DNA of 44,805 nt, from IMG/VR virus record IMGVR_UViG_3300045988_165656; one strand, written 5' to 3'. Numbering within the stretch: position 1 is the stretch's first letter; each line of letters begins with the position of its first letter. The translations under genes and the position numbers were made by a program. Shown piece after piece: positions 12,005 to 39,976 of this stretch. Under the pieces are notes generated by a model. That model had not been told where the DNA came from. It did not search any database and saw only the letters and a program-made list of their open reading frames with translations. Source of the DNA: a virus.

Positions 12005-13262
12005 TATTTTCACCTTCATCTTGTTTTTCATCGTCATCATCATTCTGGTCGTCTCCAGAACCTCCAGTTTGGTACTGTTTTGCGTATTCTACATTTACGT
12101 AGTTCAGAGACTGCATTCGTACACCTTCTAACTCAGGCAACGGTCTCAAACCAAAAGCAACACGCTTTTCATTTTCGTAAATGGAACCACTGTCACCAAG
12201 TAATCTCACCATCTCCAACGTCTGGTCTACACTCATGAAAATAAGGTCTTTAGGATAAAACTGAATCTTATTTCCAAATGACCGCTCTCTCGGAGTAAAC
12301 AGAGATCGCGTGAATCCTTGTGACATTGCAATGATTAGAGGCTCTAGCGTTTTCTGATAGAAAGCTTCGTATTGTTCTTTGGTATAATCACCCGTCAGAA
12401 TACAAAGCGGAACACCGAAATGACGAAGGATTTTCTCATCAATAAATTTCAGAGTTGCTTCATCGACTAACTGAACATCTCTCGTAATTGGAATAAATTC
12501 ACTCGTAATATCGAGTGGCAAGAATCCACTTTCTGAATTCTGCAGTTTCTGTTCCAATTCTTTCAATGCTGCTTCAGTTTTGCCTCCATCAATCATTGAC
12601 TTAAACTTGACAACACCGTTGATTGCGCAGCTTGACATCATTGCCTTTGACAAATTGTGCAAAAGCAAATAGTTCAAATTCAGCGTTTTTAGAAGTGCCT
12701 CGTTATCAGGTTGACCTTGCTCATTGCCGCCCATATACTCATTGACTGAATATTTGTAGCGGATATGAATGACATCTGAATATGCTAACGTGGTTTCAAA
12801 ATTATTTGCAAAAGTAAATTTCACATAGAGCGTGTCAGAGGCATCCTGGATGAAATCTACCTGCGTAGGCTGTATTGGATATAGGCCTGTGTATTTTCTC
12901 TTCTCAGTGCCATCCTTGTCTGTCCAAACGTAATATGTTGGAATGATAAACGAGTTGTAGTTGAAGAAGAGCTGCCAAACAATTTTCTCAATGAATTCTG
13001 ACGTTGTCATAATTTCATTTGGTGCATTCAAAACAGTTTGGATGTCGCTGTTCACAGGACTTACATCGCAACCAGATGCTCTGACATGTTGAGGTGTCAG
13101 CTTTTTCATTTCACTTACGATGCAATTTATCGCCTGTTGGACAACGTCACTGGCATAAATATCATCACCAAACTGAGAAAATATCGGAGTAAACCCATTT
13201 AGCATATCCGCATACTCGGTTTTAACTTTAGGCTTTCGCCTCAATTTATCTAACCATCCCAA
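11997..13262 (-). CDS. Portal protein (HK97 family)
   Basis: 421 aa with a portal-typical N-terminus and an acidic C-terminal tail. Lies between the terminase and the protease. Confidence 0.9.
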   Translation of the reverse strand: MGWLDKLRRKPKVKTEYADMLNGFTPIFSQFGDDIYASDVVQQAINCIVSEMKKLTPQHVRASGCDVSPVNSDIQTVLNAPNEIMTTSEFIEKIVWQLFFNYNSFIIPTYYVWTDKDGTEKRKYTGLYPIQPTQVDFIQDASDTLYVKFTFANNFETTLAYSDVIHIRYKYSVNEYMGGNEQGQPDNEALLKTLNLNYLLLHNLSKAMMSSCAINGVVKFKSMIDGGKTEAALKELEQKLQNSESGFLPLDITSEFIPITRDVQLVDEATLKFIDEKILRHFGVPLCILTGDYTKEQYEAFYQKTLEPLIIAMSQGFTRSLFTPRERSFGNKIQFYPKDLIFMSVDQTLEMVRLLGDSGSIYENEKRVAFGLRPLPELEGVRMQSLNYVNVEYAKQYQTGGSGDDQNDDDDEKQDEGENNE

Positions 13263-13295
13263 TCAATTCACCGCCTTTCATTCCAAATACATCGT

Positions 13296-13829
13296 TTAGA
13301 CGAGCATTACGTAGCCTTCAAATGCCTCATCAGAGGTAATCACGACGTTTGTACCAACTACCTGAACATCAACGAGGGCGATACCATAATTTGAGCCGCT
13401 CTTTCTCATTACAACAGCAGGAACCTGACCATTTGCAGCAGTGGTAAATGTGTCACTAGTCCAATTGTTAGTAGTGAAAGTTACCTTTGTAGGTGCTTTC
13501 AGACCGTTCAGCTTTGTTTTGAGTGCAGTCGTAAAGTCCTCAGTAGACAGGCCCTTACCTGTTTCCTTGTCGACCTTATTCGTGAATGCTGAATCAGTAC
13601 TCTTCACAAAGTTGCTGTCATTCGTGAGCTGACTCGTCTTTGTGGGTACAGCAGGGATTGCAGCAGAAGTGATGAAGCCAGAATCATTTGTCAGATCGCT
13701 CGTCTTCGTAGGTACGTCAGGAATAGCGGTTTTCTTCGCATAGTCATTCTGAATCTCAGTGAAATTGTCATTGATCTTACCAATTTCCTCTGCAATGAAA
13801 CCACCGTTTTTGATTGTCTGCATAGCCAT
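13296..13829 (-). CDS. Fibre-like repeat protein
   Basis: Tandem repeat IPDVPTKTSDLTNDSGFIT / IPAVPTKTSQLTNDSNFV, plus VDKETGKGLSTEDFT. Both motifs are common in phage fibre proteins. Confidence 0.5.
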   Translation of the reverse strand: MAMQTIKNGGFIAEEIGKINDNFTEIQNDYAKKTAIPDVPTKTSDLTNDSGFITSAAIPAVPTKTSQLTNDSNFVKSTDSAFTNKVDKETGKGLSTEDFTTALKTKLNGLKAPTKVTFTTNNWTSDTFTTAANGQVPAVVMRKSGSNYGIALVDVQVVGTNVVITSDEAFEGYVMLV

Positions 13830-13844
13830 AATAATTTCCTCCTG

Positions 13845-14315
13845 TTAGTTTAACTTGATGCCAATAATCTTTGTTATTGGTCTATCGCTGAATGATGGCA
13901 GGTAGCGCCCAGATGCGTTTGTTTTGATGCCAGCATAAACATTATTGCTGAACTTCAATTGCGTCTTAGAGCTGACCCGAGCGTTACACATGTACAAATT
14001 GCATCCTTCCATAGTTGAGAAATCTGATTCACAGTTCATCACCTTAAACACGGTTCCAACTGCAATTGAATCGATTCGCTGCCAACATGATGCACCTTCT
14101 CGCTGAATCATGATTCCATCAAACTTTGTGATGTCATCTGTCAATGTTATCGACACTGTGCTTCCAGAATCTTTTGAAGGAATAGTTTTGGAACCTTCAA
14201 AAAGAACTTTATAGCTGATTGGTTTATATGTCAGCTTGGCACTCAATTCAGAGAAATTAGAATTGATTCCCGAAATAAAATTCTTCAAGGTGGTTCCCAT
14301 TTTGAAAACTGTCAT
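13845..14315 (-). CDS. Hypothetical protein (N-terminus related to that of the 13296-13829 product)
   Basis: 156-aa ORF tightly abutting its neighbours. Shares the INxNFxE N-terminal motif. Confidence 0.4.
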   Translation of the reverse strand: MTVFKMGTTLKNFISGINSNFSELSAKLTYKPISYKVLFEGSKTIPSKDSGSTVSITLTDDITKFDGIMIQREGASCWQRIDSIAVGTVFKVMNCESDFSTMEGCNLYMCNARVSSKTQLKFSNNVYAGIKTNASGRYLPSFSDRPITKIIGIKLN

Positions 14316-14570
14316 TTACTCGCCCTCCAAATAAATTTTGCAAACACACGGATCATCGACAAAAAATTCAAAATCACCGTTTTCAAGAATCCTGTACACA
14401 GCAATCATGCTTTCCCAATTTACCTCATCATCCATTCGCCGAAGCGCTTTTTCAACGTGGTAATTTGTTCCCAAACAATGAGATGTAGCATAAATAGTTG
14501 CCTTATACAGTCCATCAGGCTGAGGCAAGAAGCTATTTGTTGATAGTGTTTTTGGATATACACTCGCCAT
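14316..14570 (-). CDS. Hypothetical protein
   Basis: 84-aa ORF starting 2 nt after the TerL stop. No recognisable motif. Confidence 0.4.
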   Translation of the reverse strand: MASVYPKTLSTNSFLPQPDGLYKATIYATSHCLGTNYHVEKALRRMDDEVNWESMIAVYRILENGDFEFFVDDPCVCKIYLEGE

Positions 14571-14572
14571 GA

Positions 14573-16276
14573 TTAGCCTTCAATAATCTGCTTGTACTCG
14601 GTTCTATATCTTCTGTACATTTCGTACAAAATAACAAATGTGACTGCTCCATCAATTCGCTTTGCAATCTCACTCTTAATGCACATGCATTGTCCAAGGT
14701 CATTTACTTTGATTGATGCATTTTTCAAACACCATTTATCTACTTCGTTATTATCGTAGTTTATGAGCTGATGTTTGAAATCCGCTTCACACAGTTTCAT
14801 AGCATTCGACAACGTTTGTGCATTCTGCATTATCAGAACCAAATCGTCGTTTTCTTTCATCCAACCGTATTCACCCATTCGAGTTATCCAGTCTTTCGAG
14901 AATCGTTGGTCGTAGCCGCATTTCCATAACTTAATGTCATATTCGACGTACAATTTGTAGAACCAATCAGCTACTATTGCCAAATCAATGTCGTTTCCTT
15001 CAGTGATTGTGACGAGTCCTTTCTTCGCCCATTCAAGATATTTTGCACCTGCATTTCCATCATCAGATTCTTCTAACTTTGATTCTGGAATAAAATACAT
15101 TGTGTGCACATATTTAACTGGGTCATTAGGTTTCATCATGAGGATTTTTGCACATGTCAAGTCAGTGGTTTCTGAAAGGTCAACCGCTCCCAAGCACACG
15201 CTTCCTCTGAAATCTTCCAAATTATGAACTGTGCCATAATTGTAGTCTTCGAGATTCAACCATGATTCAGCCGAATTCTGTTTGATGTTGAAGTCTTTGG
15301 AAAGTACGAACATTCTATCTGCTTTTGACTTTCTAGCCAAATCAATTTGTTCATCCAAATAGTCCCATTTTTTCACGATTCCTAGAGTTGGATTTGACTT
15401 CACCCAAGTTTTTCGGTCTTGCCAAATTTCTTGCTCTGAATCTTGTGTATAGAACCACGGAAGCAATCTCTCAGCAGAAGGACCATCGTCCTCTTTCCAA
15501 ATGACTGCTCTTGCTTTTCTCAATTCATCATCCAAATATCCGTCTACGACGAACCCTTCGGTGGTGATATTGATAAATTTAGGATTGTCTTTCAGTGACT
15601 GTGACTGCTCAATCGACTTGCCGATAATGTTTTCTTGCATCTCGTGAGTTTCGTCAATAATAGCAAAGTCAATGTTTCGACCTTCCTTATTTTTTGTACG
15701 ATCTGACAGCTTGAAGATTTTTGACCCATTCACTTTGTTGGAAATGAATCGCTGATTGCGCTTCGTGTCCAATTGGTCAGGGTCGATCAATAATCTCATC
15801 GTGTCAATCGCATCGTATGTAATGCTCGCCTGATTGTCATCATTGGAGCTGCAAACGATATCTGCACCTTCATTTCCGACAATCAATTCACTAAGGCCGA
15901 GAGCTGAGCAAGTTTCAGATTTTGTGTTCTTACGTGCGATCAACAGAATAACTTTTTTGAATCTGTCGAACGACGTTTCACTCATCTTGAAACTATACAC
16001 AGCTTCGATGAATGCCTTCTGCCACAGCATCAATTTCATTGGTTTATTGTAATACGGTGACTTTGTCAGTCGTACACAATTCTCCATGAAATCCATTCGC
16101 AACATTGCATCATCAGTATTGTAGTAGTAGGCATCGTTTAGGAAATCTTCTTTAAGATTTTGTAACTCCTGCCAAAGCTCTTGGCCTACCAATATTTCAC
16201 CGCATTCGATTCGCGCGTGGTATTCCAACAAGAAGCTGTTGTCAGGTGTCCAAATTTTCTTTTCCCTAATCAACAT
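14573..16276 (-). CDS. terL: Terminase large subunit (Terminase_1 type)
   Basis: 567 aa. Walker-A-like LIARKNTKSE, then IDETHE (Walker B), and a C-terminal nuclease region. Preceded by a P27-type TerS. Confidence 0.9.
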   Translation of the reverse strand: MLIREKKIWTPDNSFLLEYHARIECGEILVGQELWQELQNLKEDFLNDAYYYNTDDAMLRMDFMENCVRLTKSPYYNKPMKLMLWQKAFIEAVYSFKMSETSFDRFKKVILLIARKNTKSETCSALGLSELIVGNEGADIVCSSNDDNQASITYDAIDTMRLLIDPDQLDTKRNQRFISNKVNGSKIFKLSDRTKNKEGRNIDFAIIDETHEMQENIIGKSIEQSQSLKDNPKFINITTEGFVVDGYLDDELRKARAVIWKEDDGPSAERLLPWFYTQDSEQEIWQDRKTWVKSNPTLGIVKKWDYLDEQIDLARKSKADRMFVLSKDFNIKQNSAESWLNLEDYNYGTVHNLEDFRGSVCLGAVDLSETTDLTCAKILMMKPNDPVKYVHTMYFIPESKLEESDDGNAGAKYLEWAKKGLVTITEGNDIDLAIVADWFYKLYVEYDIKLWKCGYDQRFSKDWITRMGEYGWMKENDDLVLIMQNAQTLSNAMKLCEADFKHQLINYDNNEVDKWCLKNASIKVNDLGQCMCIKSEIAKRIDGAVTFVILYEMYRRYRTEYKQIIEG

Positions 16277-21581: not shown

Positions 21582-21983
21582 TCAACCTGAATTCAACCTG
21601 ACTTTCGCAATGCCTGCATTTTTCATCATTCTTCGACAAATCGGGCAAGGTTCCGCCGCAATCACTTTTCCGTTTTCTTCGCCGTAAAGGTAGAGCGTAG
21701 AGCCAATCATATCCTTGCGAGCAGCCGAGATCATCGCATTCATTTCAGCATGCACGCTTTCGCAGTCACCATAATCACCATCATTGTGCTCATGACCAAG
21801 TCTTTTGCAGGTACCTCCGTCACAACAATTCGCTTCACCTCGAGGTGAGCCATTATATCCTGTTGCGATGATCTCATCATTCTTGACTATCACCGCTCCA
21901 TACTGTCTGCGCGTGCATGTTGATCGCTTACTGACGGCTGCTGCAATGCCAAGATAATATTCTTCGATTGTAGGTCTGTTCAT
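21582..21983 (-). CDS. dCMP (deoxycytidylate) deaminase
   Basis: Zinc motifs VHAEMNA and PCPICRRMM. 133 aa, ComEB/T4-cd-like. Confidence 0.9.
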   Translation of the reverse strand: MNRPTIEEYYLGIAAAVSKRSTCTRRQYGAVIVKNDEIIATGYNGSPRGEANCCDGGTCKRLGHEHNDGDYGDCESVHAEMNAMISAARKDMIGSTLYLYGEENGKVIAAEPCPICRRMMKNAGIAKVRLNSG

Positions 21984-23635
21984 TAGATTTTCTCCAATAC
22001 AGTGTTGCCGACAACGAGTACATCTGTACCACTTGTAATCCAGCTCTTTACTGCTACTTCTGTCGATTCAATGATCGGGTTGTTGTGCAAGTTGAAGCTC
22101 GTATTGATGAGCGCCTTCTTGCCAGTAAGAAGCTGATAGATTGAGAGTACTTTCCAGATGAACGGATCTTCATTCTGAGAGACGATTTGCGGTCTTGCTG
22201 TATGATCTACGTGGCAAGCAGCAGGATAGCTCTCGATGAATTCTGGCGTACAATCGAACGTCATCGTCATATGCTTTGCACTGTCTCTGCCACCATCAAG
22301 CTCCAAGAACAGGTCATCCGCTACTTCTTCGCGGCATACAGGAGCGAAAGGCATAAACTCTGTACGACCAAGCTTGTCATTGAGCCAAGTGTTGGTTTCC
22401 TTCGTGTCGCAATTATACAGAATGCTACGATGGCAAAGAGCACGAGGACCGAATTCCATCTTACCCTTGACGAGGCAAACGATCTTATTTTCACTGAGCA
22501 TCTCTGCGATTGTCCGTGCCAATTCATTATCGTTAGCAATTCTACGGCAAGAATACTTGTCAGACTCACCTACGATCAAACGTTCATTTGCAATTGTGCC
22601 ACATTGATTCGGGCTGATTTTTGCTTCAGGAAGATTGTCAGACAGAATAGCGTATGCTGCACCAATTGCATTGCCTTCGTCTCCCATTGCAGGGCACACA
22701 TAGACGTTTTTGAAGATACCCAATTCTTTGATTCTCTGATTGATTTTGACATTTGCAAATAATCCACCAGACAAATAGCAATTATAGTCATATTCGTCAA
22801 CGTTTTCGTATATCCACTTGCAAACACACTGCTCTGCATATTCCTGAACTGTAGCAGCGATGTCCTCACGTGTTGCTCCTGCTGCTTTCAGATTTTCAAC
22901 GAGCGAATAAGTTGCTTTCTTCAGTTTGAGGAAATCACCGAAATCATAGATGTGAGATTCTTCCACCATCTGTTCTTCTTCCTCTGTCAGAGGTACATTG
23001 CGAGATTCTACTTCCAAAGAATAGAATTCTCTCAAATATTTTGGCTGACCAAATGCTGCAAGGCCTGTGATTTTTCCTTCATGCTTGAGCTCTGTGAAGC
23101 CTAATGCACCGGTCACAAATTGATACACCAAACCAACTGAAGCTCTGAGCGGCAAAGATACGTTGACTTCATCATTACCGTATCGGTAAATGATTCCGCT
23201 GTAACCATCGCCAAAACCATCAGACGTGATGAGATAGTCACCATTTTTTGGATTGTCATAAAATGCGACTGTAGCAAAAGCATGAGCCCAGTGATGAGGC
23301 ACGTGAATGATGTCTTCAAAATCAATTGCCGTATGCTCGCGAAAGTAGTTGCGAATCACATCATGCCAATTGTCACTGTGAAGATTGTATTTTTTACCGT
23401 ACTTCTCCAAATAGTCTGTGCTCATGTTCTCATAGTGAGATACTGCGAGAGCTTCGAAATTGTATACACCAGAGAGCTCACAGCACTTCACAGCCGCATC
23501 GAAAGGAAGCTCTTTGGTATTCTTTTCACCATTCAGACGTTCCTGAGAGATCGCTGCAAGCACTCCTCGTTTGCTAGATACAACGCACGCTGAACTGTTA
23601 TGACTGAATGACATTCCAAGATAAAATTTTTCCAC
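21983..23635 (-). CDS. NodU/CmcH-family carbamoyltransferase
   Basis: 550 aa. N-terminus LGMSFSHNSSACVV...ISQERLNGEKNTKELP and HHWAHAFATVAF are family hallmarks. C-terminal carbamoyltransferase domain is present. Confidence 0.85.
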   Translation of the reverse strand: MEKFYLGMSFSHNSSACVVSSKRGVLAAISQERLNGEKNTKELPFDAAVKCCELSGVYNFEALAVSHYENMSTDYLEKYGKKYNLHSDNWHDVIRNYFREHTAIDFEDIIHVPHHWAHAFATVAFYDNPKNGDYLITSDGFGDGYSGIIYRYGNDEVNVSLPLRASVGLVYQFVTGALGFTELKHEGKITGLAAFGQPKYLREFYSLEVESRNVPLTEEEEQMVEESHIYDFGDFLKLKKATYSLVENLKAAGATREDIAATVQEYAEQCVCKWIYENVDEYDYNCYLSGGLFANVKINQRIKELGIFKNVYVCPAMGDEGNAIGAAYAILSDNLPEAKISPNQCGTIANERLIVGESDKYSCRRIANDNELARTIAEMLSENKIVCLVKGKMEFGPRALCHRSILYNCDTKETNTWLNDKLGRTEFMPFAPVCREEVADDLFLELDGGRDSAKHMTMTFDCTPEFIESYPAACHVDHTARPQIVSQNEDPFIWKVLSIYQLLTGKKALINTSFNLHNNPIIESTEVAVKSWITSGTDVLVVGNTVLEKI

Positions 23636-23647
23636 GATAATTCCTCC

Positions 23648-24118
23648 TCAATATTCGATCCAATGTGATTTGAACCAGTGTGTCCAGTTTCGATCAGTCA
23701 ATTTGGTTTTTACTACTCCGAAACCTACACCGATAGCGTATGACGATTCAATAACCTCTCCGTTTCCAACGTAAATACCAACGTGATTAGGCATGTATAC
23801 CAAAACACCTGCTATATTTGGAATGGTGTCAATTGTTCCATTTTCCGTTGCGAGTTTGAACAGGTCATCGGTTGCAATATCCTCTGACACTTCTGCACAT
23901 TTCTTCACTAGGCCGATACAATCGAAACAATATATGTACCGACCGATGAAGCTTTTAAGATATTCAACAACTGCGTGATTGTAACGTTTTGGGGCAATTT
24001 GGATTCCTTTGTTTATGACTTCTTCGCTGATGATTTCACCAGAAGCTCCCCATACAAACAAAGTGTTGATTTTCTCTAACCGTTTAGCGGTTAGAGCAAC
24101 TTCTCCGCTCGTTCTCAT
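23648..24118 (-). CDS. NlpC/P60-fold (papain-like Cys-His) protein with no signal peptide or wall-binding domain
   Basis: FDCIGLVKKC (catalytic Cys context) and PNHVGIYVGNGEVIESS (His context). 156 aa. Overlaps the ThyX-like stop. Confidence 0.6.
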   Translation of the reverse strand: MRTSGEVALTAKRLEKINTLFVWGASGEIISEEVINKGIQIAPKRYNHAVVEYLKSFIGRYIYCFDCIGLVKKCAEVSEDIATDDLFKLATENGTIDTIPNIAGVLVYMPNHVGIYVGNGEVIESSYAIGVGFGVVKTKLTDRNWTHWFKSHWIEY

Positions 24119-24834
24119 ATAAATTCCTCCATGTACGGTAATTTTTCAACCCATTCGCAGAACGTCCGCCATTCGTCAAGCTTATGGGTCTTTCTCGAAT
24201 GGTACATGTTCAACAGCACTTCATAATTCAATTGTACCGTTGCACGCTGGTTATAACTTGACGGTAAAAGCTGAATCATCTGCCACCAGTATTTTTTATC
24301 TTTTGTTTGTAAATACATATTCTTGTTACTGTTCAATACCGCCACGGTTATTTGTAATAACGAATAAGGGTGTAAAAGTATATCGTATTCACCAACCGAT
24401 AATTTAGCGTGAGTATTACCAGTAGTTTCTAAATGTTCATGCGAAAAATCATCTATAGTAAATTCTTTTTTGTGAATCGTGTGCATCGTTGAACAAGAAT
24501 TGCGAACAGTGCCAACCTTATATGTATCGAATTCCTTCCACCAATATAACGGTGCTGTGATGTCAACTGTCACATTTATCATACGAAGGAATTTTCTATG
24601 GTCTGTACCAGCTTTGACGAGTTTCTTCATCCGAGCAAGGTCATTTTCACCGACAATAAGATGAGCTGTATTTTCATTACAAACGCAACGGTGAACACAA
24701 TTTTTAGGACATTCTTCATCATACCAAGTGTCGCAAAAATCACTATCCGACTTGTCCCAACTGTTCATTGGATTTCTCATTCCACGAATGGCTGCTTCCC
24801 ATCCGTATACTTCATCATTTTCAATTTGAATCAC
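24115..24834 (-). CDS. ThyX-like (flavin-dependent thymidylate synthase family) protein with a divergent substrate motif
   Basis: DHRKFLRMINVTVDITAPLYWWKEFDTYKVGTVRNSCSTMH and LPSSYNQRATVQLNYEVLLNMYHSRK parallel ThyX blocks. The canonical RHRxxSxxxxSxRY motif is altered. Confidence 0.55.
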   Translation of the reverse strand: MIQIENDEVYGWEAAIRGMRNPMNSWDKSDSDFCDTWYDEECPKNCVHRCVCNENTAHLIVGENDLARMKKLVKAGTDHRKFLRMINVTVDITAPLYWWKEFDTYKVGTVRNSCSTMHTIHKKEFTIDDFSHEHLETTGNTHAKLSVGEYDILLHPYSLLQITVAVLNSNKNMYLQTKDKKYWWQMIQLLPSSYNQRATVQLNYEVLLNMYHSRKTHKLDEWRTFCEWVEKLPYMEEFI

Positions 24835-25138
24835 TCTTGACCTCCAAATCTAACGCATCAAGGTCGATGCCATACTCTTTTCGCAAATAGCTGATCGCAT
24901 CATCAGCTGTCACATCTTTCCCGAAAATATCAGGCCAATGAAGAATTTCATTTGCACTTTCTACAATTCGCTCAAGACGTTTCTTGCGCCATCCTAGCGT
25001 TCTTTCTAATGCGATCAAACATATGGCAATACCTTGCTTTGCACCATCTCCCAGCGCAGTCTGAAAGATCTCATCTCTCATTTGTTCATATGCTGCCACT
25101 GAGATTTTTACCGTGTTTCTATCTTTGAGGGTTTTCAC
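24821..25138 (-). CDS. Hypothetical protein
   Basis: 105-aa ORF with a GTG start at 25138, overlapping the ThyX-like start. Confidence 0.4.
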   Translation of the reverse strand: MKTLKDRNTVKISVAAYEQMRDEIFQTALGDGAKQGIAICLIALERTLGWRKKRLERIVESANEILHWPDIFGKDVTADDAISYLRKEYGIDLDALDLEVKSDSN

Positions 25139-25216
25139 TTACAAAATAACACCTCCGAGAATGAAACCGAATACAAAACACACAAATCCGATAAAGGCGT
25201 ACGCCATAACTCTCAT
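25139..25216 (-). CDS. Possible 25-aa hydrophobic peptide
   Basis: MRVMAYAFIGFVCFVFGFILGGVIL exactly fills the gap between two genes. It is short, so support is weak. Confidence 0.3.
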   Translation of the reverse strand: MRVMAYAFIGFVCFVFGFILGGVIL

Positions 25217-25217
25217 G

Positions 25218-25523
25218 TCATTCACCTCTCAATCGTTTTTGAACATATTGGATTGTTTCACACAGTGAATCCAATTCGTCAACAATCTTATCGAACTTTT
25301 TCTGTACTTCGTTTAGATCATCTTCAAAATCGAAACCTAACAATTGATTTGGTGTAACATGGAATTCATTGCAAATTTTTAGAAGCGTCGTTGTGCTAGG
25401 AACGGATTTTTCGCTTTCATAGGTGTAAATTATGTTCTTACTTACTCCCAAGCGTTCTGCGAATTGTTCTCGTGTCAATCCTTCACGTTTACGCAAAATT
25501 TTCAGGTTTTTTGCAAACTTCAT
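25218..25523 (-). CDS. XRE-family HTH transcriptional regulator embedded in the nucleotide operon
   Basis: LKILRKREGLTREQFAERLGVSKNIIYTYESEKSVPSTTTLLKICNEF is a classic Cro/C1-type HTH. Confidence 0.8.
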   Translation of the reverse strand: MKFAKNLKILRKREGLTREQFAERLGVSKNIIYTYESEKSVPSTTTLLKICNEFHVTPNQLLGFDFEDDLNEVQKKFDKIVDELDSLCETIQYVQKRLRGE

Positions 25524-25526
25524 GCT

Positions 25527-25946
25527 TTATACTCCTGTACTCCCAAAGCCGTTGCTTCCACGTTCCTCAATATCCTCTGTGACAAAATCAGCAATAACAA
25601 CTGGTGTAATTACCAATTGGCCAATTCTGTCACCGTTATGTACAATGAAGGATTCTCTACCTACGTTTGTAACGATCGCGTGAATTTCTCCACGGTAACC
25701 AGAATCAATTGGAGGAAGCTCACAAACAATTCCCTTTGTGCTCAAGCCGCTTCTTGGAAATACGCATGCAGCATAACCATCAGGGAGAATCAATCCCAAA
25801 CCGAGAGGAATCTTACGAGTGTGATTCGGAGGAATTACAATTGTTCCTTCACCTGTGATATGAGCATGTACATCTGCACCTGCATCGTTTGCGTGAGCTC
25901 TAAGCGGCAGTTTCTCATAGCCGTAGTCCAACACCTTAATCTTCAT
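25527..25946 (-). CDS. dut: Trimeric dUTPase-family nucleotidohydrolase
   Basis: AGADVHA, PRSGLS, IDSGYRGEI and C-terminal RGSNGFGSTG motifs. Confidence 0.9.
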   Translation of the reverse strand: MKIKVLDYGYEKLPLRAHANDAGADVHAHITGEGTIVIPPNHTRKIPLGLGLILPDGYAACVFPRSGLSTKGIVCELPPIDSGYRGEIHAIVTNVGRESFIVHNGDRIGQLVITPVVIADFVTEDIEERGSNGFGSTGV

Positions 25947-26739
25947 ACTTTTCCTCCTTCAAAATGCCATAGTCTTCACATGCCAGAACCAAATCAATTT
26001 TTGGAGTTTCACTTTTTTCAACAATTTGCTCCAAAATGAACTTGTAGCACATCAACTTTTCAAAATCGACCGAAATTTGAAGAGTTGGAATTGTAGCAGC
26101 CGCTCTTACGATGTCATCATAATTGCGTTCATACACGTGCAGACTTACGACTGTATGCGTATATGTGCCACATTCAACGTCCAGTCTTTTGGCGATATAT
26201 TTCTGCAGCTCAGTGAAGAAAATCGTGTCATACGGTAAACCATACCAAACGTCATTGCTGCGCATGATTCCATAACCGTGTAGCTTGCCGTCACGAATGA
26301 GGAACTGCAATGCAATCGTGCAAATCTCATCCTTCGTCTCAATCACACGTTTATTTGGAACATTGAAATTGATAACTGCCCGTCTGCTTGTAGGGTCACT
26401 GCACAAAAGCTGAATGATCTTCTCGACCTGATTGAAACCGTGTCTACCGAAGACAATATCACCATACGCTGAATATGAGGTTACTCCGTCATCCGAGATG
26501 CGACCCCAAAGACCTGCGAATTTGTTTATAAAGCCTACATCATTGCGCCCAAGAGCGTACCAGAGCAGCTCTCCGCAAATGTACGGCTTTGAGATATTTC
26601 TCACGTTGATAACGTTATTATCCAAATTAGTCAGCGTGAATGAATATCCGTTTAGCTCTTTCGTTCCTCTCACTTCGGGTGCATCTACCAAATCGCTACA
26701 AATTTTTTTGTAAATGCTATCCATGTTGTTTGCAATCAT
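25936..26739 (-). CDS. ThyA-family pyrimidine C5 transferase, predicted dCMP-specific (hydroxymethylase or methylase)
   Basis: Aligns without gaps to E. coli ThyA from the catalytic Cys (EICTIALQF) through RSND to GLPYD. Asp replaces the specificity residue Asn177. Confidence 0.75.
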   Translation of the reverse strand: MIANNMDSIYKKICSDLVDAPEVRGTKELNGYSFTLTNLDNNVINVRNISKPYICGELLWYALGRNDVGFINKFAGLWGRISDDGVTSYSAYGDIVFGRHGFNQVEKIIQLLCSDPTSRRAVINFNVPNKRVIETKDEICTIALQFLIRDGKLHGYGIMRSNDVWYGLPYDTIFFTELQKYIAKRLDVECGTYTHTVVSLHVYERNYDDIVRAAATIPTLQISVDFEKLMCYKFILEQIVEKSETPKIDLVLACEDYGILKEEKYED

Positions 26740-26953
26740 GTTTCTTCTCTCCTAACATTTCGTAAATTTTTCTGAATGAGGTCATTTGTGCAATTTCGTT
26801 CATTGTGAATTTCACGTCGAATTCGTCCTCGATAGCGACGATTAAACCGATATGAGCAAGACTGTCCCATCCATCGGTATTTTCTGGTGTAGAATTTTCA
26901 TCTACCTCTACTTTCAGCACTTCGCGAAAGATTTCTTTCAATCGTTCGAGCAT
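26717..26953 (-). CDS. Acyl carrier protein
   Basis: 78 aa, acidic, with the phosphopantetheine-attachment context GWDSLAHIGLIVAIEDEF. Ends in TAG and overlaps the next start. Confidence 0.8.
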   Translation of the reverse strand: MLERLKEIFREVLKVEVDENSTPENTDGWDSLAHIGLIVAIEDEFDVKFTMNEIAQMTSFRKIYEMLGEKKHDCKQHG

Positions 26954-28545
26954 TCAATCACCTCATTTTTTTCAGTATAGTCATCAACGTTTAACATCCA
27001 ACGAGCAACCGAATATTTGGTGAAACCTAACTTTTGGTATATGTCAAGATTTGAGTTGTTTCTGTCGTTTTCGAAAAAAAGTCCTACAACCTGTTTGATA
27101 CCTCTTGATTTGCATTCATCGATGAAAGAATCAAATAATGCAAATTCCAAATCTCGTTTGAGAACTCTACAGCTCATCACCCAAATATCTATGACAGCTG
27201 AATCGTTTTCCATCTTTGCAGAAATAACACTGACTAAACCGTTATCACCAAATTTGTCTTTTAGCTTTGCTGTCAGCGTGAATCTGTTCTCGTTGCGAAG
27301 AACACTCTCGCTGATTTTGTATCCTGTCAAATTGAATTGGTGCGTTTTGTTGATTAGCTGAATAGATCGCTCAATCGTGTCATCGTTTAACATTTCGATT
27401 TTTGCTTGCATGTGCAAACTTTCCAAATATTCGCGATAGTCGGAAAATTTACCTTCGAACGATTGTCTTTCGGCGTTCGCTTTGTACATATCTGCCCTAT
27501 TCAGATCGTCGTTTGTAACGATCGTCGGTTCGAAATACGCTTGCTTATCCAATTCTCTTATTCTCTCGGTGATATCTGCCATGAGTGGCGTTTCAACTCC
27601 GAGCTGTTCATGAACCAGATAACGTTCCGCTTCATTGTCGTCGATGAACACAAAATCAGTAGGTGCAATGCCGACTTCTTCTGATAATCGTTCCAAGTTA
27701 CTAGCTTTGTCGTTCCAATTTGCAAGTATGATAGGAAAATCAGATTCGCCGAGAATTCCTCCAGATGTTCTCAACGCACTCAGAGCAGCATCTTCGTTAT
27801 TCTTCGATATAACATATAACGGCACATTCAAATCCTTGATGTACTGTTGGAACTCTCTGAATGCTCTACCTATAGCATTATCTGCGGCAACATTTACCGT
27901 GCCTTCTCCTGCTAATCCATCCCACAATGTGTTATCCAAATCAATTGCGATGGCTTTTTTATTTTCACCGCAAATAGACTTTATGATATGCAAAATATTC
28001 GAACACAATATTGGAATTGCAGCAACGTCTAACGCATAACCATACATGTACCAATGAGACAGATTGTGCCATTTTTCAAGACCGTAATTCGCAGAAAGCC
28101 AATTGATGTCATTGATATGGAACCAATCGTGACTTGCCGCAAAGTCATAAAACTTCTCATTGAGTTTTGCTAAAAATCTAGATTTGCCTCTAACATCGTA
28201 GCAATCTCGATTTCCTAACAATCGATAAAACGGCATCTCGAAATTATTTTGGATAACATGGCAATCATAATCGTCATGCAACTTCAACCACATTTCTTCA
28301 TACCGATTATATTCGTTGTCCAGTTTTCTCAGGATCTCATCTGGTGAATCTTTCACGTTCGGCTCATAAATTATATTCCTATTTGTAGTGTGAATGTAGA
28401 TGAAATCTGGAGTGAATCCGTGAAAATCACCATACATCGCTGTTTCCCAAAACTTGCCGAAATCGTCCTCGTAAACCTCGTGATGTTCTCCTAAAATTTT
28501 GGCAATATGAGCAGTAGTGGAACCTCCCAAAATAGCTATCTTCAT
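26938..28545 (-). CDS. FkbH-like HAD-IIIC phosphatase/acyltransferase (glyceryl-ACP loading type)
   Basis: IAIDLDNTLWDG, VISKNNEDAA, ANWNDKASNL, FVFIDDNEAER and C-terminal VMSCRVLKRDLE match the FkbH-domain blocks. ATG at 28545 overlaps the upstream stop (ATGA). Confidence 0.85.
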   Translation of the reverse strand: MKIAILGGSTTAHIAKILGEHHEVYEDDFGKFWETAMYGDFHGFTPDFIYIHTTNRNIIYEPNVKDSPDEILRKLDNEYNRYEEMWLKLHDDYDCHVIQNNFEMPFYRLLGNRDCYDVRGKSRFLAKLNEKFYDFAASHDWFHINDINWLSANYGLEKWHNLSHWYMYGYALDVAAIPILCSNILHIIKSICGENKKAIAIDLDNTLWDGLAGEGTVNVAADNAIGRAFREFQQYIKDLNVPLYVISKNNEDAALSALRTSGGILGESDFPIILANWNDKASNLERLSEEVGIAPTDFVFIDDNEAERYLVHEQLGVETPLMADITERIRELDKQAYFEPTIVTNDDLNRADMYKANAERQSFEGKFSDYREYLESLHMQAKIEMLNDDTIERSIQLINKTHQFNLTGYKISESVLRNENRFTLTAKLKDKFGDNGLVSVISAKMENDSAVIDIWVMSCRVLKRDLEFALFDSFIDECKSRGIKQVVGLFFENDRNNSNLDIYQKLGFTKYSVARWMLNVDDYTEKNEVIECSND

Positions 28546-29018
28546 CAAATCATCCTTTCGATCTCGTTAACTACCTCATCAACAGTCTTACCTGTGGTGT
28601 CAACAAGAGGAAATAAACACGAATCTGAAAGTGTGACATAGTCACGATTGATATTTTTCACTAATTCGAAATCTTCGACGTATTCGTCACCTCTAGCTTC
28701 GAGTCGTTTCTTCAATTCAGATTCGCTCGCCGTCAAGATAAACACTTTACAACCGTAGCTGTCCAACAAAGTAAATAACATGTCCTCAACAGTATCATCG
28801 AATTTTGGTTTGCGACCGAAATATCTTGGATAGATGAGCTCGCTGATGAAACAACGATCATGTACCATGTTATCTGGCACCATTACTTCCATATACTTTC
28901 TTATTGTACCGTCACCGTCATGAGTAAGTCTGATGATGTCACAATGCAAGCGATTGGCCAATTTTTCAACAACTGACGTTTTACCTGTACAATCGCATCC
29001 TTCGATCAAAATTCTCAT
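28545..29018 (-). CDS. Thymidylate-kinase-like dNMP kinase
   Basis: P-loop ILIEGCDCTGKTS (compare Tmk EGxDGxGKT). ATG at 29018 follows SD gaggagg. Confidence 0.65.
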   Translation of the reverse strand: MRILIEGCDCTGKTSVVEKLANRLHCDIIRLTHDGDGTIRKYMEVMVPDNMVHDRCFISELIYPRYFGRKPKFDDTVEDMLFTLLDSYGCKVFILTASESELKKRLEARGDEYVEDFELVKNINRDYVTLSDSCLFPLVDTTGKTVDEVVNEIERMI

Positions 29019-29189
29019 TTGTTCCTCCTCACGGTTCATTTCTTGTGAATCTCACAACTGCAACAAATTTTTTCCGGCTGAGATCATATGTCATATGCCA
29101 GTCAATCACCGCTACCTTATTGGATAACTGTGCTAACTGTGCTGCAAGATTGACTCTGTTCATAGCCTCAAAGCTGATACATTCGACCA

Positions 29190-31076
29190 TTATGCACCTT
29201 CTTTCTTGACAAATATACGATACTTCTTACCTTTGATCGTCTTGTCCTTGATGTCAAAGTCAAACTGCTTTTTGACCTGTTTAGAAAACTCAATGTGTGA
29301 CATCGGATTGAATGCATTTGCCAAACAAAATTCACCGTACAATTTGTAGATTTCTTTTGTTGGTTCATTCTCGATGTCATCAGCACCGACTTCTTTGAAG
29401 AACAATTGGATAGGATTGTTCGTCTCTTCATATTCTTCGATTGACTTCTGAACCTTATCTGACTTCGTGAACGCATTATTGCTCAAAATACGTTTCAAAC
29501 CTTTGATTCCTAAGATTATGAGGTACTCCAGAACTTCAGGTTCGATTAGCTTATATTTGATATATGGGTCAAAATCAGGGTCATCCTTAGAGAATCTAGC
29601 ATCAAATGGAATGATAACCAATCGACTCAATACCGCACCCGATTTGTCTTTCATTCTAGGAATATTATTGGCTGAGAATAATAGCTTACAATACGGTGCG
29701 AAGAAGAATTCGTTTTGGCCTTTCTTTTCACCTTTTATCGGATCTCCAGAAACAATTTTCTTGAATATCGATGGATTTGCAATGAAGTCATCGCCAATAT
29801 CATCACCGATATTTGCCAATTTTCCGAATAACGATGCTGATGAAAATCTGTCACCCAATTCATTCAGGTCCAATGCTGCCGTATTATCATCACCGAGTAA
29901 TTCTTTAAGCATTGATAAATATGTAGACTTACCATTCTTCTTGTCACCTGTTAGGATAAATGATTTTCTCAACTCATTTCGTCGATAGAAACAATAACCA
30001 ACAGCTTCTTCCAACAACGCTCTGATATTAGGATCGTTGCATGATAATTTATCAAGCGTGCCGTCCAACAATTCACTTTTAGCATTTGAATTATAGTTGA
30101 AATTGATTTTGTTAGTGATAATTATGTCAGGTGAAAAATCAGTCAATGTGTCTTCTTCGATGTCATAAATTCCATTTTTGAATGCTATGTACCTAGCATC
30201 ACTAGGACGAGTATTTTTCCGTGTTAGCACGTCAAGATAACTCAACACCTCAGTTCGCTTTGAGCGATTCAAATTTGGAATGTGTTCGATCATCGCTGCT
30301 TCGATGTCCAATTGGCCAGGAACATAAATTCCATCATGATAAATATGCAACTGCCCGTTGATTCTCACTATGTGATGAGTATTCTTCAAATATATTGCAA
30401 ACTTGTCAAATTGAAATTTTCCGTTTTTGAAGAACATCGGTTTTTTGAATGCTTCATCTCTGAGAATCGTGTTCAGTTCTGATTCATCTAATTTGTCTTT
30501 TAACAAATACTCGTTGATGATGCCGATGCACTCTCGAGCTTCGTCAACTGAAAAATCATTCGATTGCAATGTCAAAATATAATTGAACAGCGTTTGATTT
30601 CTACCATCGCCTCTCTCCATTTCCAAGAAATCGATCGAGCTTTTGACCGGTATCAACCATTTTGGAACGGTGTCATATTCGTCGCAATCGTAAATTATTT
30701 CACGTTCTCGATCATCATATTTCAAAATCGAATATGAGTTTTTTGTCCCTATTTTGATATCTGCGGTTAGGCCGCAAGCCAATTTAGTACGAATCTTGTT
30801 CGTCTCAAGTTTGTCATTGATAAACAAAAAATGCTTTCCTCTGGTGGTCTGATAAACTCTGCATTGCAACTTCATTTCCTGAACAATCTTGAACAGAATT
30901 TCTGACTGCTCAAAATCATCGATGTCGATCAGAGCTGTTTCATCAGATAAAATACCAGCATACTCAGGTAAGTTTTTCACTTGCTCGTACGTTTGTAATT
31001 CTTCTGACGTTTTACCTTTGAATTTCAACAGGCATTTCTTGTCTTTCGTAGGAACATATCCTTTGAAAAAATTCAC
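29190..31076 (-). CDS. Bifunctional primase-polymerase / SF3 (D5/P4-type) helicase
   Basis: N-terminal prim-pol-like region (ALIDIDD...TTRGKHFLF). Walker A GDKKNGKST within a P4/D5-like C-terminal domain. Confidence 0.85.
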   Translation of the reverse strand: MNFFKGYVPTKDKKCLLKFKGKTSEELQTYEQVKNLPEYAGILSDETALIDIDDFEQSEILFKIVQEMKLQCRVYQTTRGKHFLFINDKLETNKIRTKLACGLTADIKIGTKNSYSILKYDDREREIIYDCDEYDTVPKWLIPVKSSIDFLEMERGDGRNQTLFNYILTLQSNDFSVDEARECIGIINEYLLKDKLDESELNTILRDEAFKKPMFFKNGKFQFDKFAIYLKNTHHIVRINGQLHIYHDGIYVPGQLDIEAAMIEHIPNLNRSKRTEVLSYLDVLTRKNTRPSDARYIAFKNGIYDIEEDTLTDFSPDIIITNKINFNYNSNAKSELLDGTLDKLSCNDPNIRALLEEAVGYCFYRRNELRKSFILTGDKKNGKSTYLSMLKELLGDDNTAALDLNELGDRFSSASLFGKLANIGDDIGDDFIANPSIFKKIVSGDPIKGEKKGQNEFFFAPYCKLLFSANNIPRMKDKSGAVLSRLVIIPFDARFSKDDPDFDPYIKYKLIEPEVLEYLIILGIKGLKRILSNNAFTKSDKVQKSIEEYEETNNPIQLFFKEVGADDIENEPTKEIYKLYGEFCLANAFNPMSHIEFSKQVKKQFDFDIKDKTIKGKKYRIFVKKEGA

Positions 31077-31276
31077 TTACCGTCACTCCGTTGCCATTTA
31101 TTTGAGCAGTACACACATTTTGTTGATGTGCCACGTCTCAAGTTATCACCTCTTACTGCTTTCGTTCTTCCACAAATATCACACATGCAATTCCAATATG
31201 CTCGTTTCTTGTTGTCGAGAAAACTAAATTCAAAAACGTGCCAATGGCCAAAAGTTTGGCCGCTTATATCTATCAT
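31073..31276 (-). CDS. Small zinc-ribbon protein
   Basis: 67 aa with CMCDICG...CVYC. Overlaps both neighbours. Confidence 0.45.
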   Translation of the reverse strand: MIDISGQTFGHWHVFEFSFLDNKKRAYWNCMCDICGRTKAVRGDNLRRGTSTKCVYCSNKWQRSDGK

Positions 31277-33216
31277 GTTTGCATCACTCCAAACTGAGTT
31301 AGTCTATCTTTTGCCATTTTGATGTACCATTCTCTATCGAGTCTCCAACCAACAGTTGCTTTTTTCACATCATCGTTCACGATGAAGCAATGTTCTGGAG
31401 TATTTGCAAATTTTTCAATAATTGCACCGTCAGTCTTTTGCTTTCCAATAAAACCGTCTGTCGTTTTTACTGAAGCGAATACTCTGAATGTTCTATCGTT
31501 CAATTTGACATTTCCATGACTATCGGCGGAGTGTGTTTCATAATATTTACACCCATTACACTCGCAGCGGTTAATGTCGATTTCTCCAAATTTATCCGGA
31601 TTATGAACGTTTGGATTCGAACACGAATATAAATGGAAACGACTGTCACCCAAATCTTTCATGTATTTACATGTTTCATCTTTGTAATCACTAGGATATT
31701 TTGACAGTGCATGCCAGCTGTTCTTAAACTTACCTGAAAGCTTGACGATCTTTTGGAACATAATGAGATCGTTGCATTCAGCGATCGTCTTTTCGACTGG
31801 AATACCGATTGTCATATAGTCAACCATTGCTTTATTGACAATTGGCAAATCATAATCCAATGTATTTTGCTTTTTGACGTATGAACCTTTTGATTTGTAG
31901 TGTCCATCACCATCGACAACAACATAATTGTTAACGTCTTTTTGGAAAATACGTCGATATTCATCAAATTCCATATTCAAACCAGTACGCTGTTCCCATT
32001 CATAAACGATGTCGTCAATGATTTCAAACCATTTGTTTTCATCTTTGTCGTCAGGCATTCTAATCAAAATACCATCGGTGTTCGACTGAATGATTTCTGC
32101 ATATGGTTCCAATTTTTCCATCAAATCCAACAGCAGTAACTGTCCAAAAATACAAATGTTATTTGCCATCAACGGATCGTATAACTGGTTGTTTTTATCT
32201 TTGAGACAACCGTATGTACCATTCAACAACCATTTCAACGGTGCTTGCAATGGATTCTTTTCCGCTTTGTATTTTATTCGTTGATGGTAAATATCAATGA
32301 ACTTTTGAGGGTCCTTAATGTTTCTAGAATGCAAATTGTATTGGATCATAAGCGAAGGATATAGGCTTCTAACGTCCATATTGATGAAATAACCTTCAGC
32401 GACATATTTCTTGCGAGCCGAGTGAATACCACCCCAACCGAATAGTGTTTCTACACCTGCGACTAAAACTGTCAACGATTTTGAATAATCTCGATTGTTC
32501 ACATCTTTATACCAATCTACAACATTGGTATATTTGGATATTCTCAATGTATCTGGGAACGAAATGTCAAATTCGTCTCCTCTTGATTCACGAGGTCTGT
32601 GAGCATCAAGAATCATTGCTGACAACTGTGCTTTCGTTCTGCTGATATTTGACATCGGCAAACCGAACATTTTTATCATGCCGATTTGGGCATCGAAATC
32701 GTCTTTCCGTGAGAAGAAAACTTCGATAGTTTGCTCAACATCATGTCGGCAATATTTGACGGTTTCTTCGATCTCACTTTTAGTCAACTTTCTATCAATG
32801 TCGAACGGCACAGATGTTTCTTTGATATCATTTCCCATAAAACCTTCAAGTGACTTAAGGCCTCTGTCACTACGATACATCACGTCGTAATTGTACATTT
32901 GGAATTTTCTGAATAGGCCACTGAATTGCCATCCATATTTTCCTTTAGCGATAATGAAATCATTGACTTCCTTAGGATTGAATCCACAAAGAATTGCTTT
33001 CAGAATATATTGGTCATAGTGGTTGTTATTATAACCAACCCAAATTTGATTCTTGTGAGCATCGTAATATTCTTGGAGCTTCTCTTTGTCGTTGATAATC
33101 ACCACTTCTGATTTTTCGTAGATATTGATAATTGCAACGAGCCAATCTTCTTTGAACACCTCAAAATCGTAGAAATTGAGAATTGAACTCACCTCCTGAC
33201 TAACCCACCTTCCCAC
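31273..33216 (-). CDS. Family-B-like DNA polymerase with 3'-5' exonuclease domain (start codon uncertain)
   Basis: Exo motifs FYDFEVF, NNHYDQYIL and YCRHDVEQT. Polymerase motifs DVRSLYPSLM and QSNTDGILI. There is no ATG in the first ~100 codons. Confidence 0.8.
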   Translation of the reverse strand: MGRWVSQEVSSILNFYDFEVFKEDWLVAIINIYEKSEVVIINDKEKLQEYYDAHKNQIWVGYNNNHYDQYILKAILCGFNPKEVNDFIIAKGKYGWQFSGLFRKFQMYNYDVMYRSDRGLKSLEGFMGNDIKETSVPFDIDRKLTKSEIEETVKYCRHDVEQTIEVFFSRKDDFDAQIGMIKMFGLPMSNISRTKAQLSAMILDAHRPRESRGDEFDISFPDTLRISKYTNVVDWYKDVNNRDYSKSLTVLVAGVETLFGWGGIHSARKKYVAEGYFINMDVRSLYPSLMIQYNLHSRNIKDPQKFIDIYHQRIKYKAEKNPLQAPLKWLLNGTYGCLKDKNNQLYDPLMANNICIFGQLLLLDLMEKLEPYAEIIQSNTDGILIRMPDDKDENKWFEIIDDIVYEWEQRTGLNMEFDEYRRIFQKDVNNYVVVDGDGHYKSKGSYVKKQNTLDYDLPIVNKAMVDYMTIGIPVEKTIAECNDLIMFQKIVKLSGKFKNSWHALSKYPSDYKDETCKYMKDLGDSRFHLYSCSNPNVHNPDKFGEIDINRCECNGCKYYETHSADSHGNVKLNDRTFRVFASVKTTDGFIGKQKTDGAIIEKFANTPEHCFIVNDDVKKATVGWRLDREWYIKMAKDRLTQFGVMQT

Positions 33217-39910: not shown

Positions 39911-39926
39911 TATCACCTCCTCGAAA

Positions 39927-39941
39927 TTATTCTGATATAAC
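39927..39941. promoter_or_regulatory. Operator-like half of a perfect 15-bp inverted repeat (partner at 40023-40037)
   Basis: ttattctgatataac at 39927-39941 and gttatatcagaataa at 40023-40037 are exact reverse complements. They bracket the Cro-like gene promoter. Confidence 0.5.
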
Positions 39942-39976
39942 ATTCGCGATACAGATTCGTTCTTGTTACATTCTCT

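Follow-up and report, generated by a model that had tools for sequence, protein, structure and literature searches.

The window analysed here, a 44,805-nucleotide stretch of viral DNA (IMG/VR record IMGVR_UViG_3300045988_165656), encodes on its minus strand a 267-residue protein of the thymidylate synthase superfamily (positions 25936..26739, ATG start). Judged from its sequence and modelled fold, this protein is very probably a folate-dependent deoxycytidine monophosphate (dCMP) 5-hydroxymethylase and the functional equivalent of bacteriophage T4 gp42. In public records the gene and its relatives are annotated either as "thymidylate synthase" or as "hypothetical protein". The predicted dCMP 5-hydroxymethylase combines a PF00303 domain and a MilA-like fold with the active-site signature of T4 gp42. 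Its product is predicted to be 5-hydroxymethyl-dCMP (5-hm-dCMP), which is strongly favoured over 5-methyl-dCMP, and the gene most likely starts a known route to a modified, restriction-resistant base that replaces cytosine in the phage DNA.

The active site carries the signature of T4 gp42

An earlier reading of the window, made from its letters alone (the sequence-only reading), had placed an aspartate at the position of Asn177 in ThyA, the thymidylate synthase of E. coli, and had predicted a cytosine nucleotide as the substrate. The strings that it quoted are all present in the protein, namely EICTIALQF, which holds Cys140, MRSND, which starts at Met159, and GLPYD, which ends at Asp171, and the spacings that it gave are right, with Arg160 standing 20 residues after Cys140 and Asp171 a further 11 residues on. 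We aligned the protein using MAFFT with reference enzymes taken from public records (E. coli thyA, T4 gene 42, SPO1 gene 29, the ViI-type enzyme of Klebsiella phage Menlow, the Xp12 thymidylate synthase homologue and RB69 gene 48), and positions are numbered after E. coli ThyA. Cys140 is set on C146 of ThyA and C148 of T4 gp42, and Asp171 on Asn177 and Asp179, respectively. There is no gap between Cys140 and Asp171 in either the window or the E. coli row, in agreement with the gap-free core described before, and the presence of Asp179 at the specificity position of T4 gp42 is borne out by the gene 42 sequence. The sequence-only reading had proposed an alignment against ThyA, T4 gp42 and the SPO1 and Xp12 enzymes as its check, and Asp171 stays at position 177 in that comparison. 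Independently of MAFFT, HMMER alignments to the solved structures 4dq1, 6auj and 3ix6, all of them thymidylate synthases, place Asp171 on the same Asn. The codon of Asp171, the pyrimidine-specificity residue, is gac at 26227..26229 and that of Cys140, the catalytic nucleophile, is tgc at 26320..26322, both on the minus strand.

The choice between Asn and Asp at position 177 tracks the known substrate in all of the aligned references. Asn is found in ThyA, SPO1 gp29 and the Menlow ViI-like enzyme, and Asp in T4 gp42, MilA, Xp12 and RB69 gp48. The N177D substitution switches the preferred base, so that cytosine is taken in place of uracil (Hardy, Liu/Santi and Graves 1992, cited in PMC8670742; also PMC5175136). 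This split among the references supports the earlier proposal that Asp171 selects a cytosine nucleotide and that the protein is the entry enzyme for a modified cytosine. Further support comes from Enterococcus phages VPE25 and VFW, whose homologues are 43% identical to the window protein and whose DNA resists bisulfite conversion at C (PMC4999554).

Position 177 is one of six diagnostic positions (126/143/147/167/169/177) at which the window protein has R119, D137, T141, S161, D163 and D171, giving the signature R-D-T-S-D-D. This is exactly the signature of T4 gp42 (R-D-T-S-D-D) and differs from that of every other reference enzyme, whether ThyA (R-L-H-S-D-N), the Xp12 dCMP methylase (R-N-P-S-D-D), MilA (K-D-T-A-D-D), the 5-hydroxy-dCMP synthase RB69 gp48 (R-E-T-S-N-D) or SPO1 gp29 and the Menlow enzyme (both R-D-N-S-D-N). 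Position 147 ranked second among the residues that tell phage contigs with modified cytosine from unmodified ones (PMC8670742). At position 143, Leu correlates with formation of a methyl group, and an acidic residue, Asp or Glu, with a hydroxymethyl product, while D169N marks all tested members of the newly recognised flavin-dependent 5-hydroxy-dCMP synthases (PMC13326640). For MilA, mutagenesis has shown that the change of Ser167 to Ala together with that of Arg126' to Lys gives the preference for CMP over dCMP (PMC5175136). The window protein has Asp137 (gat, 26329..26331, minus strand) at the place of E. coli Leu143, where the references are acidic if they are hydroxymethylases and non-acidic if they form a methyl group. 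It has Asp163 (gac, 26251..26253, minus strand) at the place of E. coli Asp169, which is Asn in the flavin-dependent 5-hydroxy-dCMP synthases, and it carries the deoxyribose-type residues Ser161 (Ser167) and Arg119 (Arg126').

These features are conserved among relatives. Positions 147 and 177 are kept in all 120 of the closest cluster representatives (62–96% identity), and the pattern C-T...D...D is kept in 90/90 related loci at identities down to 42%. When the 150 best representatives among 211 clusters (50% identity, E <= 1e-30) were considered, 147 had the Asp177-equivalent and 141 the full signature.

Family membership and fold

An AGGAG ribosome-binding site precedes the 267-residue open reading frame (ORF) by about 10 nt. 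The ORF matches Pfam PF00303 (Thymidylat_synt) with an E-value of 2.9e-22 and 79.5 bits against a cutoff of 24.3, so that the match is not a chance one. The catalytic set of the superfamily is complete, with Cys140, Glu57, Tyr92, Arg119/Arg120, Arg160, Ser161, Asp163, His201 and Tyr203 equivalent to E. coli C146, E58, Y94, R126/R127, R166, S167, D169, H207 and Y209, respectively, and Asp137, Thr141 and Asp171 are further key residues. The NCBIfam equivalog models for thymidylate synthase all score far under their cutoffs (best 81 bits versus 175). By sequence (phmmer), the closest protein in the PDB is the CMP hydroxymethylase MilA (E 6e-30), with thymidylate synthases at 1e-12 to 1e-15 and T4 gp42 at 4e-10. 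An AlphaFold2 (AF2) model built with 40 homologues has a mean predicted local distance difference test score (pLDDT) of 84 and a predicted template modelling score (pTM) of 0.85. The top seven Foldseek matches for this model are all MilA chains (E ~5e-18, TM 0.74), and thymidylate synthases rank behind them (E ~1e-13). At the nucleotide level, a megablast search with window positions 23000–30000 gave no match among 50,697 phage records, and the window represents an uncultured gut phage. Four homologous proteins (P0391, P0393, P0399 and P0412) are fusions of 440–616 residues whose hydroxymethylase domain is preceded by an N-terminal one of about 170–350 residues.

A hydroxymethyl product is favoured over the alternatives

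The sequence-only reading had left the product as either 5-hm-dCMP or 5-methyl-dCMP. The former is now strongly favoured and the latter is not upheld, because position 143 is acidic, MilA is the nearest structure, and decorating enzymes that require a hydroxyl stand beside the gene and its relatives. A dCMP methylase of the Xp12 type, in which the methylene is reduced by the tetrahydrofolate (THF) hydride to give 5-methyl-dCMP and dihydrofolate, would have Asp177 in common with the window protein, and Asn-to-Asp mutants of thymidylate synthase turn into dCMP methylases according to work cited in PMC8670742. Such an enzyme is nevertheless very unlikely here. All four aligned hydroxymethylases share the Asp of the window protein at position 143, where Xp12 (the single reference of its type) has Asn and ThyA has Leu. 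Position 147 is Thr as in T4 gp42 and MilA but Pro in Xp12, and identity to Xp12 is 24.5%, compared with 38.8% to MilA. Xp12 has a dihydrofolate reductase (DHFR) gene two genes from its methylase, whereas none was seen in the window ORFs that were scanned. Moreover, the neighbouring O-carbamoyltransferase and the glucosyltransferases of the relatives would find no acceptor in a methyl group; both types of transferase need a hydroxyl, and this speaks for a hydroxymethyl product and against a methyl one. The public annotations as thymidylate synthase would instead suit an enzyme that uses a uracil nucleotide, be it a standard thymidylate synthase or a deoxyuridine monophosphate (dUMP) hydroxymethylase, and both a dUMP-making dCMP deaminase and a dUTPase are encoded nearby. 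All of the dUMP-using references, however, have Asn177 with His or Asn at 147, where the window protein has Asp and Thr. A dUMP hydroxymethylase of the SPO1 gp29 or ViI type thus fails to match at position 177, though position 143 is acidic as in those enzymes. Given also the low scores against the NCBIfam thymidylate synthase models and the modification at C in the cultured relatives VPE25 and VFW, we regard a uracil-nucleotide enzyme as very improbable indeed.

The remaining alternatives concern enzymes that share the cytosine-type residue. The flavin-dependent 5-hydroxy-dCMP synthases of the RB69 gp48 and DLP3 gp80 type use O2 to place an OH directly on C5; they were only lately recognised within the superfamily (PMC13326640) and resemble the window protein in having Asp177 and Thr147 and in being acidic at position 143. 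Their hallmark D169N is absent from the window protein, in which Asp163 lies within MRSND as in T4 gp42 and 90/90 related loci, no arabinosyl or glycosyl pathway genes lie nearby, and identity to RB69 gp48 is 26.6%, all of which makes this activity extremely unlikely. Since MilA is the best solved match by both sequence and fold, a CMP hydroxymethylase of the MilA/BcmA kind, whose product would go into a nucleoside metabolite or into modified RNA and not into DNA, also has to be weighed. The MilA residues for ribonucleotides, Ala176 and Lys133', are however replaced by Ser161 and Arg119, the deoxy type of thymidylate synthase and T4 dCMP hydroxymethylase, and the gene lies within a phage DNA-replication operon with a deoxynucleoside monophosphate (dNMP) kinase, a dUTPase and a DNA polymerase, so that we consider this role extremely improbable.

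Several points do weigh against a T4-type dCMP hydroxymethylase. The rule for position 143 is built on few characterised enzymes, which here comprise four hydroxymethylases and two methyl-formers, and assay or DNA-composition data are known only for relatives no more than 45% identical to the window protein. The nearest solved relative, MilA, prefers CMP, although both of the residues that set this preference are of the deoxy type in the window protein. The AF2 model has low confidence at residues 77–101, which include Tyr92, and nowhere else. The carbamoyltransferase characterised in the MetaGPA study (Yang et al., eLife 2021; PMC8670742) is likened to that of the window by domains and size, not by sequence identity. 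Finally, no dCTPase of the gp56 or MazG type was found among the ORFs scanned in 19000–40000 (of the small ORFs, not all were scanned), and the replacement of C may therefore be incomplete.

For the dCMP hydroxymethylase that we infer, Cys140 would attack C6 of dCMP, while Asp171 together with Thr141 would orient the substrate by taking the N3/N4 face of cytosine instead of a uracil face, and Ser161 and Arg119 would suit a 2'-deoxyribonucleotide. The methylene of 5,10-methylene-THF would then pass to C5. Because the active-site entrance has Asp137 and not a water-excluding Leu, the exocyclic methylene would be hydrated and not reduced by hydride, yielding 5-hm-dCMP and THF. The adjoining kinase and the host nucleoside diphosphate kinase would raise 5-hm-dCMP to hm-dCTP, which the phage's own polymerase would build into DNA, and the O-carbamoyltransferase would turn the resulting 5-hydroxymethylcytosine (hmC) into 5-carbamoyloxymethylcytosine, capping the hydroxyl. 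On the dUMP/dTTP side, the dCMP deaminase and dUTPase would keep the balance by supplying dUMP and holding dUTP low. We think it rather probable that the final base is carbamoyloxymethylcytosine.

The gene lies in a nucleotide-metabolism operon

The window is an essentially complete tailed-phage genome of about 45 kb, which encodes portal, capsid and terminase proteins, a GH25 endolysin and a holin, together with a DNA polymerase, a D5-type primase-helicase and a tyrosine integrase (40435–41478, plus strand). The presence of the integrase and of a repressor-like ORF (39665–40021) suggests a temperate lifestyle, which is uncommon among phages for which base replacement by way of the nucleotide pool is predicted. 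The hydroxymethylase belongs to a minus-strand operon with the order dNMP kinase, FkbH-like protein, acyl carrier protein (ACP), thymidylate synthase homologue and dUTPase, in which successive genes overlap by 4–23 nt. Downstream of the dUTPase are genes for a helix-turn-helix protein, a 105-residue ORF product, a ThyX-fold protein, an NlpC/P60-like protein, the O-carbamoyltransferase and the dCMP deaminase. The core of kinase, thymidylate synthase homologue, dUTPase, carbamoyltransferase and deaminase recurs in metagenomic relatives.

The P-loop kinase (28545..29039, minus strand) is thymidylate-kinase-like, with matches to Thymidylate_kin, AAA_18 and phrog_761 (thymidylate kinase). It matches TIGR00041 at 3.3e-10, which is under the cutoff of that model, is kept beside the thymidylate synthase homologue in relatives, and is predicted to phosphorylate hm-dCMP toward hm-dCTP. 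The trimeric dUTPase (139 residues, 25527..25946, minus strand; PF00692, E 1e-22) has a start that overlaps the hydroxymethylase stop by 11 nt, and a dUTPase gene stands beside the hydroxymethylase gene in most related loci. The idea that it might be a hidden dCTPase was rejected, since all five canonical dUTPase motifs are readable, and we treat it as a plain dUTPase. The dCMP deaminase (133 residues, 21582..21983, minus strand) matches PF00383 at 1.2e-19. The DNA polymerase (647 residues, 31273..33216, minus strand; phrog_1252, E 1e-163) would have to accept the modified dNTP.

Predicted decoration of hydroxymethylcytosine in the window and its relatives

The O-carbamoyltransferase (550 residues, 21983..23635, minus strand) is of the NodU/CmcH/TobZ family and matches Carbam_trans_N at 5.7e-31 and Carbam_trans_C at 8.7e-50. 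Its best matches in the PDB are GdmN, the novobiocin carbamoyltransferase NovN and TobZ, and it is of the full-length type. We predict that it is a 5-hydroxymethylcytosine carbamoyltransferase. In the MetaGPA study, an Asp177-type thymidylate synthase homologue, a carbamoyltransferase and a dCMP deaminase were found together only on cytosine-modified phage contigs, and one carbamoyltransferase of about 63 kDa made 5-carbamoyloxymethyl-dC from 5hmdC (PMC8670742). The same module of thymidylate synthase homologue, Carbam_trans domains and dCMP deaminase is present in the window and in the related loci L009, L012, L014, L015, L018–L022 and L024.

Other members of the clade carry different enzymes after the hydroxymethylase. 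In VPE25, Lactobacillus phage ATCCB, L058, L068 and L070, which are more distant members, a T4-like beta-glucosyltransferase is found instead. In about 15 loci the carbamoyltransferase is replaced by a CMAS-like methyltransferase (PF02353) dependent on S-adenosylmethionine, which follows an Asp-type hydroxymethylase (L010, at about 9001–9753, L011, L023, L025, L027, L029, L035, L038, L040 and L041, and further L044, L059, L064, L066, L069 and L072). This enzyme could provide a different, undescribed decoration of hmC such as O-methylation. A large group of IMG/VR viral contigs of about 35–39 kb among L028–L057 encodes thymidylate synthase homologues 48–51% identical to the window protein and keeps the kinase, hydroxymethylase, dUTPase and dCMP deaminase. 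Searches of this group for a carbamoyltransferase, a beta-glucosyltransferase and a CMAS-like methyltransferase found none of them, and these phages may contain bare hmC or an unrecognised decoration.

An FkbH-like loader and acyl carrier protein inserted in the operon

Between the dNMP kinase and the hydroxymethylase sits a pair of genes that forms an accessory insertion. The first encodes an FkbH-like HAD-IIIC loader (536 residues, 26938..28548, minus strand) which matches TIGR01686 (FkbH) at 1.9e-58, above the cutoff, and has an intact DLDNT motif. The second encodes the ACP (78 residues, 26717..26953, minus strand; PF00550, 6.4e-8), which has a DSL phosphopantetheine-attachment motif. Stop and start codons overlap along the FkbH-ACP pair, the ACP gene overlaps the hydroxymethylase start by 23 nt, and the pair is translationally coupled to the hydroxymethylase. 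Among the loci examined, it is present in the window, L015, L018, L019 and L021 and absent from the equally close L014 and L020. When the window is compared with L018, the ratio of nonsynonymous to synonymous substitution rates (dN/dS) is 0.11 in the FkbH gene and 0.07 in the ACP gene, the same as in that of the thymidylate synthase homologue (0.10). The pair is thus under purifying selection, which indicates that it is functional in the phage.

Close relatives of the FkbH-like protein form only four clusters at 90% identity (78–95% identical to it), after which identity drops to about 45%. The homologues at that level are chromosomal and come from Ruminococcus, Lachnospiraceae and other Clostridia. 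Bacterial FkbH-ACP relatives serve glycan O-acylation with MBOAT partners, and the polysaccharide locus that holds one chromosomal homologue (L102) also encodes an ACP and an MBOAT protein; the neighbourhood of another (L101) is different. In phages the pair is very rare, and relatives of FkbH were found in only 2 of 50,697 records, one of them bacterial-looking with DHHW/AlgX-like genes, and in one distant IMG/VR contig. The latter, a 77 kb viral contig (L017, IMGVR_UViG_3300037067_006298), encodes a short FkbH-like protein and an ACP at 7453–15196, next to a ketoacyl-ACP synthase (KAS) III, a short-chain dehydrogenase/reductase (SDR), a DegT-type aminotransferase fragment, a hexapeptide acyltransferase, a DNA methylase and a fusion of a methyltransferase with a family 2 glycosyltransferase (GT2). 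This is an unrelated acyl- or sugar-pathway cluster, and it therefore sets no precedent for the role of FkbH-ACP in a phage. A search of one collection of papers for ACP- or FkbH-dependent DNA modification found nothing relevant.

The NlpC/P60-like protein (23648–24118, minus strand; Cys/His motifs FDCIGL and HVGIY) is also encoded inside the nucleotide-metabolism operon and co-occurs with FkbH-ACP in 5/5 FkbH-bearing loci. We considered it as an acyltransferase partner of the pair and rejected it. A 35%-identical homologue is present in L012 and L013, which have no FkbH, its Cys/His motifs are those of ordinary lysins, and in other phages its homologues belong to tail or lysis modules, where neither a thymidylate synthase homologue nor a carbamoyltransferase is close by. 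We identified no transferase for the final acyl step of FkbH-ACP. An undescribed ACP-dependent acylation of hmC, in which a glyceryl-type acyl group, loaded by FkbH, would be passed via holo-ACP to the 5-hydroxymethyl or the carbamate, is unlikely; alternatively, the pair could be a host-surface acylation module of a temperate phage.

A neighbouring protein with a ThyX fold

The sequence-only reading had also noted a separate ThyX-like gene and had assigned it to dTMP synthesis. The fold is confirmed, while the role does not follow. The 239-residue protein (24115..24834, minus strand; phrog_6721, function unknown) has an AF2 model with a pLDDT of 80, for which the top Foldseek matches are all ThyX (E 3e-6, TM ~0.55). 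By sequence, there was no match at threshold in Pfam or NCBIfam and none by phmmer in the PDB even at E <= 10. Its Pfam Thy1 score (E 0.039, 14.2 bits) is under the cutoff of 24.8, and sub-threshold Thy1 matches occur in 13/34 members of its family, which is very large (at least 8000 clusters) and unannotated. Using hhalign, residues 63–98 were aligned with residues 39–72 of T. maritima TM0449 (the sequence used is 100% identical to PDB 1KQ4), a weak match of 34 columns to a single ThyX sequence. An ungapped extension from this anchor, made by eye and not a structural alignment, puts TYK at RHR, the invariant Cys114 at Ser88 and Thr116 at Arg90. Thus, the RHR...S.R signature of ThyX appears to be replaced by TYK...SCS.MH. 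With this apparent replacement and a Thy1 score below threshold, dTMP synthesis by this protein is only putative. Instead of a plain ThyX, the protein may represent a divergent, flavin-dependent enzyme that modifies pyrimidines. The dCMP hydroxymethylase conclusion is independent of the ThyX premise.

Discussion

The effect of Asp at position 177 is textbook knowledge for this family and the gene module has already been described from metagenomes; here, the assignment is sharpened to a T4-type dCMP hydroxymethylase and corrects the public annotation of the gene. The hydroxymethylase group is large: clustering at 90% identity gives 120 or more clusters, and at 50% identity there are 211 (E <= 1e-30). 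We predict that a widespread group of human-gut phages of about 45 kb, whose hosts are probably Clostridia, replaces cytosine with 5-hydroxymethylcytosine, which is probably carbamoyl-capped. Such modified DNA resists many restriction enzymes and behaves abnormally in bisulfite, enzymatic-conversion and nanopore workflows, and the prediction is therefore relevant to phage-host biology, to sequencing bias in metagenomes and to the search for nucleotide-modifying enzymes. With a single hydroxymethylase clade and at least three decorating enzymes, plus FkbH-ACP in a small sub-lineage, these phages form a compact set in which the diversification of hmC decoration can be followed.

T4 gp42 (PDB 1B5E) is the same as the window protein at all seven of positions R126, D143, C146, T147, S167, D169 and D177, including the MRSND motif, and it, too, comes from a phage that also encodes a dNMP kinase and a dCMP deaminase, with the same reaction predicted. 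The identity between the two proteins is only 27%, however, and their C-terminal extensions differ, with about 60 extra residues (helices 226–256). T4 decorates its base by glucosylation, whereas carbamoylation is predicted for the window, and no gp56-type dCTPase was seen in the scanned ORFs. The host of the window phage, in contrast to that of T4, is probably a member of the gut Clostridia. MilA (mildiomycin; PDB 5B6D, 5JNH and 5JP9) has about 39% core identity and has Asp143, Asp177, Thr147 and hydroxymethylation chemistry in common with the window protein, but it is an enzyme of Streptomyces secondary metabolism, whereas the window gene is part of a phage replication module.

The MetaGPA module has the same combination of domains, with Asp177 and a residue other than His at 147, and its carbamoyltransferase is of the same size as that of the window (about 550 residues, 63 kDa), with the same end product predicted. 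A MazG-like PRA-PH domain co-occurred with that module but was not found in the scanned ORFs of the window, whereas the FkbH-ACP pair of the window was not reported there. The closest homologues from cultured phages are those of Enterococcus phages VPE25, VFW, nattely and 9183 and of Lactobacillus phage ATCCB, which are 43–51% identical and have the same signature. Their gene order is like that of the window, with a small upstream ORF (516 bp in VPE25), the thymidylate synthase homologue and a dUTPase, although a T4-like beta-glucosyltransferase follows where the window has its carbamoyltransferase. These phages have genomes of about 80–87 kb, and VPE25 and VFW are described as lytic siphophages, whereas the window group is about 45 kb and carries an integrase.

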